Part shown: positions 49,367 through 56,572 of the stretch, in pieces | Position numbering within the stretch: the stretch's first letter is position 1 | How the letters are laid out: each line of letters begins with the position of its first letter | Assembly: GCA_027621365.1 (NCBI GenBank) | Contig: JAQCBH010000005.1 | Span: forward strand, 54,658 to 118,657 | Origin: Bacteroidota bacterium | GTDB taxonomy: Bacteria; Bacteroidota; Bacteroidia; NS11-12g; UBA955 | Length of the DNA stretch: 64,000 bases | Reading direction: 5' to 3' | Position numbers and translations under genes: made by a program | Notes under the pieces: model-generated | Told to the model about the DNA's origin: nothing | Seen by the model: the letters and a program-made list of their open reading frames with translations, nothing else | Database searches by the model: none

Positions 49367-49776
49367 TCGGCTAGAACGGGCAACCAGCGCTGCATGAGTT
49401 TGTCAAAGGCCTTTTCCATGGCGGCGTGATCGATCATTTCGCTACCTGTATAAATCAGCGCTACGGCCAAGTGCATATCCAAGCGATCCAACTCCGCATA
49501 CAACTCGTGTTTGCGCATTCGATAAACCTCGCGCATCAGCCGTTTGAGGCGATTGCGATCGACCGCTCGCTTGAAACGGCGCTTGGGGGCTGACAACAAA
49601 ATTTGAATGCGGGGACCCGGCGTGCCAGCAGGCAAAACCATGGCATTAGCCCGAAAAGGGTATTTGGAAACAAAAATGCCGGACTGAAACAGACCGGCAA
49701 CTATCTTGTCGCTGCACAGCCGCTCGTCTTTGCGGAACGTGTACCGCAGGGAGCTGGAGTGCTGCAGATTCGTCAT
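49345..49776 (-). CDS. rnpA: Ribonuclease P protein component.
   Basis: Basic ~140-aa protein. [11 protein letters not shown]. Lies directly after rpmH, which is the conserved gene order. Confidence 0.8.
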
Positions 49777-49803
49777 GCTAGGGCAGAAACCCGAACCGCG
49801 AGA

Positions 49804-49965
49804 TTAGCCTTTGTGGCTGCGCTCGTCAGATACGGTCAATTTCTTGCGACCACGCGCACGACGGGCTGCCAATACACGGCGGCCGTTGGCTGTAGCCATA
49901 CGCTCACGGAAGCCGTGGCGGTTTTTGCGTTTACGATTCGAAGGCTGGTACGTACGTTTGGTCAT
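49804..49965 (-). CDS. rpmH: 50S ribosomal protein L34 (53 aa). It is not in the ORF track.
   Basis: My minus-strand translation is [53 protein letters not shown], a textbook L34 sequence. Confidence 0.9.
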
Positions 49966-49989
49966 CGCTTTAAATTTTCAAATGGGCTG

Positions 49990-49997
49990 CAAAGTTA
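49990..49997 (-). promoter_or_regulatory. Putative -7 box TAACTTTG for rpmH-rnpA-yidD.
   Basis: The minus strand reads TAACTTTGCAGCCCatttgaaaatttaaagcgATG. It shares CTTTGCAGCCC with the rpsF promoter. Confidence 0.35.
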
Positions 49998-50055
49998 ACT
50001 CAAGCATTTTTCAAATGCAATGCATACTGTCCAAATTTTCAGAGAACTTTGAAGC

Positions 50056-50631
50056 ATGGAAGGTTCTCAGCTCTTTCAACACCGCTCCAGTTTGTTTTCT
50101 GGAAAATTGTGGATGATCACCCTAATCCCCATGATAGCATCGTTGACGCCCCTCATCTTGACGGCCCACGAGCGCCAACCCATTGAGGTCATCCCTCCCA
50201 TCATCATCTTAGCATTGGCCTTCGGTTTGATTGCTTTCATACAACTCGAATACCGCCTGCATTTTGCTGAAATCAAATTCCGCTTTCGCCCCTTTGTTCG
50301 CTGGAAAACCGCGGCATTGAACGACTATTCTGAAGTTCAGATATTGAAGATTAGCCCCATGAAAGAATTCGGCGGATGGGGACTTCGCTACGGCAGTCGA
50401 CTGGGGAAAGCCTATACCAGCCACGGGAAACACATCTTGCATTTTGTGCCAAAAGACGGCCAAAAACCCAAACTCATGAGCAGTTGGAAACCGGGTCAGC
50501 CTTTCAACCTGAGTATCAAGGAATCAGAATTGGACGCCGTCGAGCAAGCTTTGAAGGCTACAGGCATTAAGGTCACTCGTCAAACGGATTGTGTGGATGG
50601 CCATCGGCGACTAGCCCTAAGCAAACGTTGA
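50056..50631 (+). CDS. Hypothetical membrane protein with two N-terminal TM helices and a ~100-aa soluble domain. The start may be at the internal MITLIP.
   Basis: Hydrophobic helices LIPMIASLTPLILTA and IIILALAFGLIAFIQL. No recognisable motif. Confidence 0.45.
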   Translation: MEGSQLFQHRSSLFSGKLWMITLIPMIASLTPLILTAHERQPIEVIPPIIILALAFGLIAFIQLEYRLHFAEIKFRFRPFVRWKTAALNDYSEVQILKISPMKEFGGWGLRYGSRLGKAYTSHGKHILHFVPKDGQKPKLMSSWKPGQPFNLSIKESELDAVEQALKATGIKVTRQTDCVDGHRRLALSKR

Positions 50632-50745
50632 CCGGCCATAAAGATGACGCGTCGAGCAAGCTTTGAAGGCTACAGGCATTAAGGTCACTCGTCAAACGGA
50701 TTGTGTGGATGGCCATCGGCGACTAGCCCTAAGCAAACGTTGACC
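50534..50745. repeat. Near-perfect tandem duplication. A 95-bp unit at 50539-50633 is repeated at 50651-50745, and the copies are separated by 17 bp.
   Basis: Copy 1 covers the last ~31 codons plus the TGA stop of the 50056-50631 ORF. Copy 2 is identical downstream. The only difference is a 1-nt indel in the 5-nt lead-in (GACGCC versus GACGC). Confidence 0.85.
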
Positions 50746-50799
50746 ACCTTACAATCTCTTGGCTTGTAGAATGCTTGACCCAATTAACAGGCCTGCGTC

Positions 50800-52875
50800 T
50801 TAAGCAACACCAGCACCGCTATTGACGGCTTGGTCAGGGCACATGAAATGCAGCTTGCCTTCGGCATCTTCGGCCATCAAGATCATGCCTTGACTTTCGA
50901 TGCCGCGCATGACGCGCGGCGCCAAATTCGCCAAATACAGCACTTGCTTTCCAACAACAGCCTCGGGCTCGAAGTGCTGGGCAATTCCACTCAATACCGT
51001 GCGTATCTCTTCGCCTACTTGCAACTCCAACTTGAGCAGTTTATCAGCTTTGGGAACGCGCTCGCAGTGGTTTACGGTGGCCACGCGCAAATCGAGTTTG
51101 GCAAAATCGTCGTATTGAATCATGGGTTTGAAAGCGGGGGTTGCGGGTTGGGCTGAGGCGGCCGGAGCGGCAGCGGAGGCCGCCAAAGAGGCTTGCAATT
51201 TGGCCATTTGTTGCTCGACCAGCTCGTCTTCGACTCGCTGGAACAACAAAGAAGGCTGAGCAATGCTATGACCAGCCGCCAAGGTTTGGGCCTGGCTCAA
51301 CCAAAACGCCTTTTTGCTCTCAGCCGATGGCTGGGCATTCAGCTGATCGAGCAGGCGCTGTGAGGCAAAGGGCATGAAGGGTTCCATGGCCAAGGCGGTA
51401 TTGTACAAGATCTGAACAGCGCGAGCCAAAACAGCCGAAGCCGCTTCAGGGTCTTCTTTGACCTTTTTCCAGGGCTCCAAATCGGCCAAAAACTTGTTTC
51501 CGTAACGGGCCAATTCCATCATAGCAAACTGGGCGTCGCGGAATCGGTATTCTTGGATCGATTGAGCAATGGGAGCAATGCGCTTGGACCACAGGTCTTC
51601 TATTGACCAGCTGTAATTGCTGGCATCCATCCAAGCTTGCGCTTGATCGGAGACCTCGGGTATGACCCCATTGTTGTATTTCTGAAGCAGTACCAAGACA
51701 CGGTTGGCGAAATTGCCCAAAATGCCGACCAACTCGGAATTCACACGGGTTTGATAATCCTTCCATGTAAACTCAGAATCTTTGGTTTCGGGAGCGATGG
51801 CCGTGAGTACATAGCGCAATTCGTCCTGCCTGTTTGGCAGTTCTTGCAAATATTCGTGCAACCACACCGCCCAATTGCGGCTGGTGCTGATCTTTTGTCC
51901 CTCTAAATTCAAAAATTCATTGGCGGGTACCTGGCTGGGCACGCAGTAGTTATCGCCGCGCAGGTGCAACATGGCCGGGAAAATGATGCAGTGAAAAACG
52001 ATGTTGTCTTTGCCGATGAAGTGAATCACTTCAGAATCGCCCGTCCACCAAAACTCCCAATCGTCGGGGCGCAACTCGCGGGTAGCCGAGATGTACCCAA
52101 TGGGAGCTTCGAACCACACATACAAAACCTTGCCATCGGCGCCCTCTACCGGAACAGGAATACCCCATTCCAAATCTCGGGTCATGGCGCGGGGTTTCAA
52201 ACCGTCATTCAACCAACTCTTGCACTGACCTAGAACATTGGACTTCCAATTCTGGCGGCTGCCTATGTACTCGTTCAAGAATTCGCTTTGCAAGCGATCC
52301 AGGGGCAAGTACCAATTTCGGGTTTCCTTTTTGATGGGCTCAGCCCCGCTCAATGCACTTTTGGGGTTGACTAATTCATCGGGACTCAAGGTAGATCCGC
52401 ATTTCTCGCACTGATCACCATAAGCCCCTTCGGCCGAACATTTGGGACAGGAGCCCACGATGTAGCGGTCGGCCAGAAACTGCTGGGTTTCAGGGTCGAA
52501 ATATTGCTCAGACACCTGAACATCAAAGGCCCCTTTTTCGAGCAAATTGGAAAAGAATTCCTGTGAGGTTTGTTTGTGAGCCGCCGAGGTGGTGCGGCTG
52601 TAGGTATCAAACGATATGCCCAAATCTTGGAAGGAGTCACCGATGGTTTTGTGGTAGCGATCGACCACATCTTGTGGGGTGATACCCTCCTTGCGAGCCC
52701 TAAGAGTAATGGGCACTCCATGCTCATCGCTTCCGCATATAAACAAGAGCTCCTCCCCCATCATGCGCAGCGTACGGGCATATATATCAGCGGGTACGTA
52801 AACGCCAGCCAAATGGCCAATGTGTACCGGACCGTTGGCATAAGGCAGGGCTGCGGTGATGGTTTTGCGACTCAT
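50800..52875 (-). CDS. metG: Methionine--tRNA ligase with a C-terminal tRNA-binding domain.
   Basis: ITAALPYANGPVHIGHLAG (HIGH motif). KISTSRN-type KMSKS region. Zinc knuckle CPKC…CEKC. Confidence 0.9.
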   Translation of the reverse strand: MSRKTITAALPYANGPVHIGHLAGVYVPADIYARTLRMMGEELLFICGSDEHGVPITLRARKEGITPQDVVDRYHKTIGDSFQDLGISFDTYSRTTSAAHKQTSQEFFSNLLEKGAFDVQVSEQYFDPETQQFLADRYIVGSCPKCSAEGAYGDQCEKCGSTLSPDELVNPKSALSGAEPIKKETRNWYLPLDRLQSEFLNEYIGSRQNWKSNVLGQCKSWLNDGLKPRAMTRDLEWGIPVPVEGADGKVLYVWFEAPIGYISATRELRPDDWEFWWTGDSEVIHFIGKDNIVFHCIIFPAMLHLRGDNYCVPSQVPANEFLNLEGQKISTSRNWAVWLHEYLQELPNRQDELRYVLTAIAPETKDSEFTWKDYQTRVNSELVGILGNFANRVLVLLQKYNNGVIPEVSDQAQAWMDASNYSWSIEDLWSKRIAPIAQSIQEYRFRDAQFAMMELARYGNKFLADLEPWKKVKEDPEAASAVLARAVQILYNTALAMEPFMPFASQRLLDQLNAQPSAESKKAFWLSQAQTLAAGHSIAQPSLLFQRVEDELVEQQMAKLQASLAASAAAPAASAQPATPAFKPMIQYDDFAKLDLRVATVNHCERVPKADKLLKLELQVGEEIRTVLSGIAQHFEPEAVVGKQVLYLANLAPRVMRGIESQGMILMAEDAEGKLHFMCPDQAVNSGAGVA

Positions 52876-52889
52876 GCCGCAAAGGTACA

Positions 52890-53222
52890 TCAATTGGGCA
52901 GTTCGCAGGCCCTTGAACCGAAGAGCCTGTATCGGTTTCTAGCCACCCATTTGTAGACGGCATCGCGAATCGGTGTGGGGAATAGAAACAGCAACTTCCA
53001 CAAGGGACCTCGGCAGCTGACCATGGCGCGAATCACTGCCGTAGAATAGATGTATGTTCGACCCTCTTCTATCCAGATCAGGCTATCCACACCGCTTTGC
53101 ATCCGATCTTGATTCTCTTGAATGGGCAGAAAGCGTACGTTTTTAGCCCGTTTGCCGCGTTGAATGAACGCCACGCAGCGGCTACAAAAACTGCAATCCC
53201 GATCAAAGTACAATTCTGGCAT
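52890..53222 (-). CDS. DCC-family thiol-disulfide oxidoreductase (DUF393).
   Basis: MPELYFDRDCSFCSRCVAFIQ contains the DxxCxxC motif. The start ATG shares one nucleotide with the upstream stop (TAATG). Confidence 0.7.
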   Translation of the reverse strand: MPELYFDRDCSFCSRCVAFIQRGKRAKNVRFLPIQENQDRMQSGVDSLIWIEEGRTYIYSTAVIRAMVSCRGPLWKLLFLFPTPIRDAVYKWVARNRYRLFGSRACELPN

Positions 53223-56200
53223 TAGGGCAATCGATTGAGGTATTGATCTACGGCTTGTTGATAGGGCCAACTTAAGGGTACCGCCGCGCGGTGCAAGGCC
53301 TCGGCTTCTTCCAATTTTTTTCGGATGGGCAAGGCCCATTCTTCGGGTATCTCTGAGGCCTGGCCCTGAGATTGCTCACCCCTTCTCTGCTCGTCTTGCT
53401 GTTGCTTTCGCTCTCCTTTTTCGTGCTCCAATAAACGCGTCAAGATCTCCTGTTGACGGAATTGCAACTGCGGCCCTAGTTGGCCGTTGATCAAATCCCG
53501 CTCCTGCTGCTCCATCAATTGCTCGGCCTCGTGCAGCAAATGCGCTGCACCTGGATCCCCCGCCTCGGCTGCCGCCTGTTTGAGCTTTTGAATTTCCCGC
53601 CTCAATTGCTCCTGCATGAGGGCCATTTGCCCCAATTCTTGGCTGAGTTGACGCTGTTGGCCTTGACTTCCACTTTGCCCGGATTGCCCTTGTGATTGCA
53701 TTTGCTGCAATTTTTCTCCCAAGGCTTTTTGGCTTTGGGACAAGCCTTGACCCGGCTTGGGTTTTCCCTGCTGACCGGGACCTTGTTTGTTGGGATTGTT
53801 GCAACTCTGGGAACCGCTTTTTTTCTGCTGAGCCGAGAGTTGTTGCTGCATGTTTTGCATGCTCTCCATCAAGAGAGCCGCCAAGGTATTGTAGGAGGTC
53901 ATGACGAATTGTTCGTGCATAGCTGCCGTGCGCAAATCCCTCTTCTTTAGTGATTGCAAGCCTTGCTCCATGCGGCGATTTACTTTGCTCATCTCACCCG
54001 TTACGATGCTGCTGATCATGGGCTGTCGGCGGGCCAAAGCCATGAGCGAATCTTCAACCGCCGTGCTCAATTCCCGAATTTCCATTTGCTGCTTGTTCAA
54101 GGCCAACACCCGCGGATTCTCGCCCGACAAGCTTTGCAACTCGGTAAACACGGCCTCTTGCCTCTTGCTCAAATCAATCAAATTGGCCAGCAAACGCCTC
54201 AAGGTTTCATAGTCTTCTTCCATGCGCTCTTCTTGGGCTTGATCCATGCTTTTCTGCAACTTTTCAGCCGCTTTTTTCATTTGATCAGCCGCTGACTTCT
54301 GTTGTTCAGAAGCTGCCTTTTGCTCGCCCTTTTCCAAGCTCTGCTGGGCTTGTTCGGCTTGACTCTGGGCTTGTGACTGTTCCGACTTGGGCACATCCAA
54401 TCCTAGAGGCTTTTCCAGGTCGGCATCGCGTTTTTCTATTTCTTGGCTGCGCTCGAGAATAGACTCCAACTGCTCCAATTGCTTTTCATGAGCCTGTTCC
54501 AAAGCCTGTTTTTCCGCCTCGGTCTTGGCCTGTTTGGAGGCCTCTGATAAAGCCTCCTCTTGCTCGGCCCAATCCTGCATCTGCTGCACTTGCTGATCGA
54601 GTAGTCGCTCGAGTTGCAGCTCTTTGATCTGCTCTTGCACATTGTCCAATTGCTTTTGGATGTCTTGGCGCATTCGGCTGATTTCTTGCATCTTTTGCCT
54701 AACCTCATCGGGCTCAGCCTTCTGGTTCAGCAAGTCTTGCAATTCTTTCATCAGCTTTTCGAGCTCGGCATTTTGCTTGAGCTCATTCAAACTTTCTTCC
54801 ACCTGCTTTTCCCTAAGGCTCTGCTCCTTTTGGCTGGGGTCCAATTCCAATTTCTTTTGGCTTTCGGCCAATTTCTGGGTCTGCGCTTGAAGTTGCTTTT
54901 GCTCGTTCAACCACTGCTGTACCGACTGTTTTTTATCGGCATCAAAACCCGATTCTTGCAGCAAACTTCGCTGCAAATCGCTGGCCCGTTTTTGCAAGTC
55001 TTGCTGGGCCTTGCTCGCTTTGCTCAGACCCGACTCCACTTGGTTCTGTTTGTCCAATTGCCACTGTTGCAATTCCCGCTGATCAGGCATTCGCAGCACT
55101 TGAGTCAAAGATTGAGCACACTGAGAACCCAATACCGCATTGTTGTCACAAGCGCGGCTGTAAACCAATATTTCTTCTCCGGGATTGGCCCCGTAATCTT
55201 GGGCTCGCAAATCTGCGACAAATGCAGCGCTGTGTTCGCGGTATTCAACCGGAACCGTCAACCGGGTAAACTGCGTTTGCCTTGGCCCTTTTACCCAGCA
55301 ATCCAAGGTTTGCAAACCGTGATCATCGATGGCCAATGATCGCAAGTACCAATGACCAGACTGACTGCTATCGGCCTGGGCCTCCAGCTCTACTTGAGGA
55401 GGGGCGTCGGCGACTACTTCAATGTGCAAGCACAAGGAATCTCCCCAAGCTGGCAAGCCCTTTCTTGGCTGACTGGAGCGAAGGGCGTAGACCCAATCTT
55501 CGCTGCTTCTCAGGTTCCGGGAAAAGCGCAATTGACCCTTTTTGATCTCTTTGGCCAGGTGAAAACTGCCAGAAAATTCGAGCAAATCGGCATGCGCAGC
55601 TTCCATCACCAAAGTCAATTCCGTGCCTGCCGGTACGATGACCGTACCCTGAGTTGGCCACTGAAGGGGCGCCTGGGAGTGCAGGTAAGAGGGGTATCGA
55701 GCCTCCAATCGAAGCGAAACAAAGCGGGGTGGTGCCCAAACGGGAAGCTCAAAAGGCTGAGAAACGAACTCGCCAGCCGCAAATCGCAGTTGCTTTCCTT
55801 GAGCAGCTCCCGACAATCGAAACGAGAAGGAATCGGGCCCCACCGACTGCATCAAATACTCCCCATCACCCCACAGACAGCGAACCGTAGAGGGAATTTC
55901 CCTGCCCTTGAGCTTGAGGGAAACTACGTATTCTCTGCCTTCTATCCAGGGCTCATTCGAGGGGTAAAAACAAAACTCAAAGGGGGCCGGCTTGGAAAAT
56001 TCTTGATCGTGCTGCCAGAGGCGTTGGGCTCCGCTCATCAAGCGCGAGGCATCCAAAACAAACCACAAACCAACCAATCCCAGCCCTACCGATAAACGGA
56101 TGGCCAGTTTCCGAAATGCTGCTGGATCCAGGGCCTGCCAAAAGGAAATGGGAGTCAAAGCCATAGACCGCTGCTCAATGGCGGCTTCCACCCAGACATC

Positions 56201-56572
56201 GGCCGCTTGGGCTTGCTTCAATTGCAGCAGGTTGATCAGCTTATCCTGGACTTCAGGAAAATGTTCGCCGATTTGCAGCGCTGCCTCTTCTCGAGTCAAG
56301 CGAGGCAACCAGGCACGGTATTGGGCAAAGGGCCGAATGACCAGCAACAAAGCAGATAGGCCCGAGGCCGTCAATAGCAAATAATATCCCCCGGTACGCA
56401 GCGAAGTGGACATCCACAGCCAATGTTCACCATAGGCCAATAGGAGCAACAAGAGCCCCGAACCCAGGCCCCAGAACAACAAACCGCGCAGAAATCGATG
56501 CCAATGGTATTGGTCGATGTAGGCGTCTAATTTGCGCTCAATGCTGCTCAAAGGAGTGGAAGGCTCCATCAT
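53222..56572 (-). CDS. Large (1116 aa) membrane-anchored protein with a long Q/E/K-rich coiled coil. It is possibly a member of the Bacteroidota DUF4175-like family.
   Basis: Two N-terminal TM helices (GLLFWGLGSGLLLLLLAYG, GGYYLLLTASGLSALLLVI). A ~350-aa mixed domain. About 450 aa of heptad-like Q/E/K/L repeats. Q/G/S low-complexity tracts (QGQSGQSGSQGQQRQ). Confidence 0.8.
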   Translation of the reverse strand: MMEPSTPLSSIERKLDAYIDQYHWHRFLRGLLFWGLGSGLLLLLLAYGEHWLWMSTSLRTGGYYLLLTASGLSALLLVIRPFAQYRAWLPRLTREEAALQIGEHFPEVQDKLINLLQLKQAQAADVWVEAAIEQRSMALTPISFWQALDPAAFRKLAIRLSVGLGLVGLWFVLDASRLMSGAQRLWQHDQEFSKPAPFEFCFYPSNEPWIEGREYVVSLKLKGREIPSTVRCLWGDGEYLMQSVGPDSFSFRLSGAAQGKQLRFAAGEFVSQPFELPVWAPPRFVSLRLEARYPSYLHSQAPLQWPTQGTVIVPAGTELTLVMEAAHADLLEFSGSFHLAKEIKKGQLRFSRNLRSSEDWVYALRSSQPRKGLPAWGDSLCLHIEVVADAPPQVELEAQADSSQSGHWYLRSLAIDDHGLQTLDCWVKGPRQTQFTRLTVPVEYREHSAAFVADLRAQDYGANPGEEILVYSRACDNNAVLGSQCAQSLTQVLRMPDQRELQQWQLDKQNQVESGLSKASKAQQDLQKRASDLQRSLLQESGFDADKKQSVQQWLNEQKQLQAQTQKLAESQKKLELDPSQKEQSLREKQVEESLNELKQNAELEKLMKELQDLLNQKAEPDEVRQKMQEISRMRQDIQKQLDNVQEQIKELQLERLLDQQVQQMQDWAEQEEALSEASKQAKTEAEKQALEQAHEKQLEQLESILERSQEIEKRDADLEKPLGLDVPKSEQSQAQSQAEQAQQSLEKGEQKAASEQQKSAADQMKKAAEKLQKSMDQAQEERMEEDYETLRRLLANLIDLSKRQEAVFTELQSLSGENPRVLALNKQQMEIRELSTAVEDSLMALARRQPMISSIVTGEMSKVNRRMEQGLQSLKKRDLRTAAMHEQFVMTSYNTLAALLMESMQNMQQQLSAQQKKSGSQSCNNPNKQGPGQQGKPKPGQGLSQSQKALGEKLQQMQSQGQSGQSGSQGQQRQLSQELGQMALMQEQLRREIQKLKQAAAEAGDPGAAHLLHEAEQLMEQQERDLINGQLGPQLQFRQQEILTRLLEHEKGERKQQQDEQRRGEQSQGQASEIPEEWALPIRKKLEEAEALHRAAVPLSWPYQQAVDQYLNRLP

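Follow-up and report, generated by a model that had tools for sequence, protein, structure and literature searches.

The 3' end of a protein-coding gene is present twice in the 64,000-nucleotide stretch of DNA that was analyzed (hereafter, the window), which belongs to an uncultured member of the Bacteroidota. The second copy was brought in by a real insertion of 112 bp that lies between this gene (the host gene) and the convergent metG; judged from alignments with relatives, the insertion is derived and specific to the lineage of the window. It is probably a scar left by a single event, either illegitimate recombination or template switching, and probably a neutral one. Two alleles of the duplicated region were found. 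The event is of an ordinary kind, namely a segmental duplication with filler DNA that was apparently followed by gene conversion, and it is documented here in unusual detail. As a natural example, the locus features a stop-loss, an imperfect duplication with filler, and an apparent short conversion tract together, in alleles that are otherwise identical over 8 kb. The coordinates of all features are collected in Table 1.

Table 1. The duplicated gene end and the features around it (positions are those of the window).
Feature	Position	Strand	Description
Host gene	50056..50631	+	191 aa (ORF table)
GACG lead-in of copy 1	50533..50536	+	read from the sequence
Repeat copy 1	50538..50633	+	96 nt: last base of codon 161, codons 162-191, TGA, 2 nt
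Codon 179 (stop-loss site)	50590..50592	+	TGT (Cys); TGA in relatives (protein and DNA alignments)
C-terminal extension VDGHRRLALSKR and TGA	50593..50631	+	12 codons, lineage-specific
Polymorphic tract	50617..50626	+	tail of copy 1
Filler GGCCATAAAGATGACG	50634..50649	+	16 nt, novel junction
Repeat copy 2	50650..50745	+	96 nt, non-coding, behind the stop
metG (methionyl-tRNA synthetase)	50800..52890	-	convergent; 696 aa from ATG; Pfam tRNA-synt_1g, E=2.6e-149

A repeat scan of the sequence returned an exact 96-nt direct repeat whose copies start 112 nt apart. The copies are not arranged head-to-tail, because the 16-nt filler sits between them; across the novel joint, the order is GTTGACC, then GGCCATAAAGATGACG, then CGTCGAGC. 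TRF placed a repeat at 50533-50745, with a period of 112, 1.9 copies, 99 % matches, and a score of 419. A scan of the whole 64-kb window returned no second direct repeat of at least 30 nt with high identity, and this uniqueness of the 96-nt repeat excludes chance as its source. Copy 2 is shifted in frame by +1 relative to copy 1 (112 = 3 × 37 + 1), and there is no downstream ORF. It runs directly into the ancestral spacer toward metG, and the 54 nt on its 3' side could be aligned with the spacer of relatives. The two copies are identical (in the window) or 96 % alike. The base composition of the region is unremarkable. The tetranucleotide GACG that leads into copy 1 also precedes copy 2 (50646-50649); it is offset by one base, however, and the match requires that C50537 be skipped. 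On the sequence, GACG may be a microhomology at the junction. Owing to the offset, the mechanism that acted at the junction cannot be reconstructed from it.

An earlier reading of the window, made from its letters alone (the sequence-only reading), had described a near-perfect duplication of the gene's 3' end at a distance of 112 bp, with a 1-nt indel in the lead-in, a second copy that is non-coding because it lies behind the stop, and a 168-bp spacer before the convergent metG. The exact 96-nt repeat, the skipped C50537, the ORF table, and a spacer of 168 nt that ends at the metG stop (50800) agree with it on these points. The description of the unit as the end of the gene holds only in part: 30 codons and the TGA are indeed repeated, but only codons 162-178 belong to the conserved reading frame (see below).

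The same reading had raised the possibility of an assembly artefact. Under this explanation, the genome would be single-copy, and contig ends overlapping by k-1 = 96 would have been joined in series. The source of the window is a short-read MAG, and an assembler run at k=97 would give that overlap, although this value of k is speculative. Other assemblies of the locus make such an error very unlikely. An exact look-up of the 696-aa MetG product, which is recorded on five public contigs, led to an ENA scaffold of 190.6 kb (L028, ERZ23495192) that features the same two copies, filler, and junctions. This scaffold equals the window across 8,091 aligned bp save for four substitutions. It was built separately, and its exact repeat measures only 79 nt, unlike a k-mer overlap. 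In addition, Logan contigs were consulted. These are non-branching paths in a k=31 de Bruijn graph (PMC12424806), and their ends therefore mark branch points. One of them (L027, from run SRR2026986) matches the window at 100 % and ends at 50567; its terminal 31-mer (50537-50567) is the last one to contain the unique base 50537, and the next 31-mer occurs in both copies. Another (L029, from run SRR2027816) also matches at 100 % and starts at 50699, such that its first 31-mer ends at 50729, the first site at which the copies in L028 differ. The contigs of two runs thus stop exactly where both repeat contexts predict, which implies that the repeat is present in the reads and that its tail is of the L028 type. 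Furthermore, k-mers that span the junction and contain filler must exist in the reads if any de Bruijn assembler is to output them. The independence of the ENA scaffold, the Logan runs, and the MAG is one of assemblers and not necessarily of populations, as the samples may overlap. Because the duplication is real, this region of the MAG need not be flagged as misassembled; the importance of the result is mainly one of quality control.

Comparison with relatives was used to establish the ancestral arrangement. The locus is single-copy in L001-L005, L007-L010, L016, L017, and L030-L034, i.e. all retrieved relatives align to the repeat once. In the nearest clades, 96-97 nt separate the TGA from the metG stop, versus 207 nt in the window, and 207-112 = 95. 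Taken together, the spacer arithmetic and the single-copy relatives indicate that the lineage of the window gained 112 bp, of which 96 are duplicated sequence and 16 are filler. Sister strains had been named in the sequence-only reading as a check on the duplication, and all relatives with 75-94 % identity are single-copy, with a spacer of 95-97 nt before metG.

No donor allele was found among the 35 loci compared or in viral contigs, and the junction string was likewise not found in viral contigs. Exact-protein look-ups with the 191-aa protein and with its DCC1-like neighbor returned no contigs from the contig collection. The filler had no counterpart in relatives, as judged from the alignments and the fetched loci: when it was compared in register with the sequence that follows GTTGACC in relatives, 4-7 of the 16 positions agreed, which is not significant, and 5 of 16 agreed with the 16 nt after copy 2. 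Within the window, the only look-alikes of the filler were two sequences with three mismatches each (50151-50166 on the - strand and 50872-50887 on the + strand), against an expectation of 0.42. This excess is borderline, and the two could be templates of the filler or chance matches.

The gene that was partially duplicated encodes a protein without a match in a Pfam search, even at E<=10. An AlphaFold model built from 42 homologues had a pLDDT of 70; in it, residues 18-39 and 42-61 form two N-terminal helices, after which the chain folds into a beta-sandwich that has a C-terminal helix. The best Foldseek matches in the PDB were all PH-fold domains, among them SSRP1, Pob3, Spt16, and the dynamin PH domain. 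The protein is therefore predicted, on the strength of the model, to have two N-terminal transmembrane (TM) helices and a PH-like beta-sandwich domain. It is 100 % identical to P0045, a sequence recorded from three NCBI Bacteroidota MAGs. The family to which it belongs is uncharacterized and has no Pfam model; its invariant motif is EFGGWGLR.G..LGKAYT..G, and homologues at 25-40 % identity were found in MAGs labelled Flavobacteriales, Actinomycetes, Gemmatimonadales, and even Methanofollis.

Close homologues of the host protein (75-93 % identity) terminate 13 residues earlier, at ...VTRQTD, and a TGA occupies the position of codon 179 in every close relative aligned. In the window, this codon is the sole Cys codon of the gene. 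The repeat consequently comprises conserved codons (162-178), the stop-loss codon, and 39 nt of the former 3' flank. The number of variable sites at the first, second, and third codon positions in relatives was 6/5/7 after the TGA, versus 6/2/20 before it; on these counts, the sequence 3' of the TGA evolves as non-coding DNA in the relatives. The last 12 codons of the host gene and their TGA accordingly read, in the alignments, as former intergenic DNA that came to be translated through a lineage-specific stop-loss. An open frame of 12 codons has a chance expectation of about 56 %. The extension was modelled as disordered (pLDDT <50 for residues 181-191). Hence, the 191-aa product should be regarded as a 178-aa protein lengthened by stop-loss, and the public annotation of P0045 at 191 aa overstates the conserved protein (178 aa).

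A pairing of selenocysteine and cysteine was also considered, as relatives have TGA where the window has Cys and their frame is open to the same second TGA. This candidate, along with UGA read-through in general, was rejected: no hairpin is conserved 3' of the UGA, and no coding-type substitution pattern follows the TGA. The consensus fold of the relatives in this region amounts to -4.5 kcal/mol and lacks covariation. A tRNA search of the 64-kb window returned no tRNA, and hence no tRNA-Sec, there. Given that there is neither a third-position bias nor a conserved hairpin, the TGA can be taken as an ordinary stop in the relatives.

The four substitutions that distinguish L028 from the window all fall in the tail of copy 1, at 50617, 50620, 50622, and 50626. 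At these sites, the window has C, A, C, and C, while L028 has T, G, A, and A and the relatives have C, A, C, and A. Copy 1 of L028 thus features three derived bases and retains the ancestral A at 50626, where copy 2 has the derived C. Copy 2 is identical between the window and L028, and the copy-1 tail of the window is exactly that of copy 2. The encoded proteins end in LALSKR (window, P0045) and LALGKS (L028, P0053), respectively, and P0053 was found on four contigs of 50-200 kb. As a test for conversion, the placement of the differences was considered: they lie in one 10-nt tract of 8,091 bp, and the presumptively converted state is that of the paralogous copy in cis. The identity of the copies in the window is best explained as a short gene conversion, with copy 2 as the presumed donor and copy 1 as the recipient. 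The sequence-only reading had taken near-identity to imply a very recent duplication. The L028 allele, however, carries four clustered differences, and its base at one of these sites is ancestral, so perfect identity is poor evidence of extreme youth. It had also proposed that the repeat could swap C-termini. The alleles do differ by a conversion-like tract, but only three residues are affected, in a tail that is non-conserved and probably disordered.

It must be asked whether the identity in the window is itself an error of consensus-building or polishing. In that case, the duplication would be real and the true genome of the L028 type, with reads from copy 2 having overwritten the tail of copy 1. 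All four long contigs with the locus in the contig collection are of the L028 type, and the window-type protein is absent from that collection. The graph of SRR2027816 is purely of the L028 type as well, for the 31-mer 50715-50745 would otherwise force a break at 50716. On the other hand, P0045 was deposited under three separate NCBI MAG accessions, and the recombinant k-mer CTAAGCAAACGTTGACCGGCCAT is not something that de Bruijn assemblers invent; some reads should hold CTAAGCAAACGTTGACCGGCCAT. An error of this kind is thus considered distinctly unlikely, and conversion remains the preferred reading of the window allele.

Simple replication slippage, the origin favored by the sequence-only reading, was weighed against this background. 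A plain and very recent tandem duplication by slippage, with the differences in L028 arising later, would be in keeping with the 96/96 identity in the window, the short GACG before both copies, and the confinement of the duplication to one narrow lineage. Slippage, however, duplicates a contiguous unit, and the filler matches neither the 16 nt after copy 2 nor the spacer of the relatives; the spacer arithmetic marks these 16 nt as extra DNA that was not part of the ancestral spacer. A slipped-strand product would have its whole period duplicated and contain no additional DNA, whereas here the period is 112 and the copies share 96 nt. The four later mutations, moreover, would all have had to hit the same 10 nt while the rest of the 8,091 bp stayed unchanged, and one of them would need to be a reversion to the ancestral A. 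Slippage is for these reasons unlikely.

The preferred origin is a single illegitimate-recombination or template-switch repair event that would have placed a second 96 nt behind the gene by way of the 16-nt filler. Because both copies carry TGT, the duplication would have occurred after the TGA-to-TGT stop-loss, or else the copies would have been homogenized afterwards. Near the junction, the copies would have been different at the outset or become so later, and L028 would preserve that state. In the lineage of the window, conversion from copy 2 to copy 1 would then have erased the differences and changed the protein end from GKS to SKR. Two sub-models of the event itself may be envisioned. 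In the first, which invokes break repair with template switching, the nascent end would have re-invaded 96 nt upstream after the 16-nt filler had been added; error-prone synthesis would account for the clustering of differences beside the joint. In the second, which is HFIR-like, two slightly different alleles would have been involved, and the copy-1 tail and the filler would be a remnant of the other allele's spacer. Both sub-models fit the data and neither is provable; an inter-strain origin is a possibility only. If a single-copy close relative with a spacer that reads GTTGACCGGCCATAAAGATGACG... were found, an inter-allelic origin would be favored.

A function for the duplicated segment was sought in several ways. 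The region 50400-50800 was scanned for terminators on both strands, and no GC-rich hairpin with a T-run was present. The folding energy did not stand out from that of shuffled sequences (z = -0.46 for the + strand and +1.10 for the - strand). A search of 49700-51100 against Rfam 15 at E<=1 gave two sub-threshold chance matches, neither of them within the repeat. The terminator that the sequence-only reading had suggested looking for in the repeat unit consequently finds no backing in either the hairpin scan or the z-scores. Rho-independent bidirectional terminators resemble the second copy in their position between convergent stops; they differ in having a GC-rich hairpin, a T-run, and a folding signal, which this region lacks. 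A specially conserved intergenic element was another candidate. When the divergent L010 is excluded, 6 of 36 sites are variable in the 3' flank, compared to 23 of 120 in the coding sequence. These rates are about the same, and the candidate was rejected.

These results bear on the idea that the duplication is functional, in that it would have restored a 3'-UTR, terminator, or sRNA lost to translation by the stop-loss, or would act as a bidirectional terminator for the host gene and metG. Two observations are in its favor: all 39 nt of the former 3' flank, which have been coding since the change from TGA to TGT, lie within the repeat, and the duplication has persisted long enough for two alleles to exist. 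Opposed to it are the missing hairpin and T-run on either strand, a fold no better than that of shuffled sequence, the lack of a consensus structure or covariation in the relatives' flank (the -4.5 kcal/mol fold given above), the variation of that flank at roughly the rate of the adjacent coding DNA, and the empty Rfam result within the repeat. A functional role is accordingly judged to be highly improbable. No sign of function was seen for copy 2, which is not translated, and from this absence of signals we infer that it is probably a neutral scar, tolerated between convergent genes.

Integrases often target the 3' ends of genes and carry a replacement copy of the displaced end. The repeat might hence be viewed as the footprint of a mobile element, i.e. 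as attL/attR-like repeats at a gene 3' end or as the target duplication of a MITE or an IS. However, the repeats are just 16 nt apart, the neighborhood encodes neither an integrase nor a transposase, and terminal inverted repeats are absent. No further copy was found in the window, the fetched loci, or the viral contigs. Such a footprint is extremely improbable, and the illegitimate-recombination or template-switch scar is retained as the explanation.

The locus was compared to known systems. RecA-independent duplications by illegitimate recombination or template switching, with subsequent conversion, are alike in having adjacent direct copies that are single-copy in relatives, a motif such as GACG that resembles microhomology at the joint, a tolerant convergent intergenic site, and conversion-like homogenization. 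The present case differs in its 16-nt filler and in the clustering of differences at the joint, and it is not a clean slipped-strand product. HFIR (de Vries & Wackernagel 2002; Prudhomme et al. 2002; both as cited in PMC5361080) leaves scars that have an illegitimate joint on one side and in-register homologous DNA on the other, and these may entail partial duplication of a gene end, as here. What sets the locus apart is that neither a donor allele nor a foreign insert was found and that the copies are identical or nearly so. In a study of conjugation in E. coli, duplications of 109-950 bp of the lacZ end were recovered among recombinants (PMC3240628), and HFIR has also been put forward to explain the displaced 3' ends of toxin loci (PMC5361080). 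The C-terminal displacement of Rhs, CDI, and T6SS loci (PMC5361080) is similar insofar as recombination is possible between the expressed 3' end and a displaced copy that lies directly behind it. It differs in that, here, the copies encode the same sequence, a toxin domain and an immunity gene are absent, the host is a small two-TM protein with a PH-like domain, and the two alleles differ only in a non-conserved tail of three residues. Polymorphic-toxin C-terminal displacement was rejected for this locus on the grounds that the copies are identical or 96 % alike, that no downstream ORF exists, and that the fold is PH-like.

A second insertion was encountered at the same gene end in a different contig (L006; ENA ERZ27251833 k141_284977, 931-1016). 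It measures 43 nt and gives rise to a tandem-like duplicate of the last eight codons together with the stop and 17 flanking nt; the two units are about 67 % identical. The insert is missing from the nearest relatives (L030, L031, L033, and L034), in which the upstream flank is identical. Based on these alignments, L006 appears to carry another duplication, independent of the first, that was already diverged at its junction when it arose. From the two cases, a hotspot may be envisioned at which 3'-end duplications are already diverged around the joint when they are formed, through error-prone, break-induced switching of templates (MMBIR-like) or inter-strain HFIR in natural populations; this proposal is doubtful. 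Two cases among about a dozen lineages, in tolerant intergenic DNA, are suggestive of a hotspot and are statistically not compelling. If the hotspot is true, the locus could serve for the study of illegitimate recombination in uncultured populations, and later conversion within the locus would rewrite the C-terminus of the protein.

Several additional observations were made in the neighborhood. The genes that flank the locus are rpsR, rpsF, yidD, rnpA, rpmH, metG, a DCC1-like gene, and a DUF4175 gene. A public gene call of 175 aa in L030 (863-1390) runs antisense across rnpA and rpmH and is spurious, and the notion of an extra upstream gene in L030 was rejected on that account; the window carries the same antisense ORF (49603-49998). 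The DUF4175-like ORF (53222-56572 on the - strand) encodes 1,116 aa and features a very long, Q/E/K-rich central region of low complexity that is coiled-coil-like.

The host gene is also a mosaic between lineages, as comparisons with P0004 and P0066 (from L006 and L030) revealed. Over the two-helix region (residues 20-75, window 50113-50280), P0004 is identical to the window protein at only 18 of 56 positions (32 %), versus 99 of 103 (96 %) over the PH-like domain. This disparity in the alignments indicates a putative recombination breakpoint inside the gene. The region that codes for the first TM helix contains an imperfect 15-nt tandem repeat of 1.9 copies (50138-50167).
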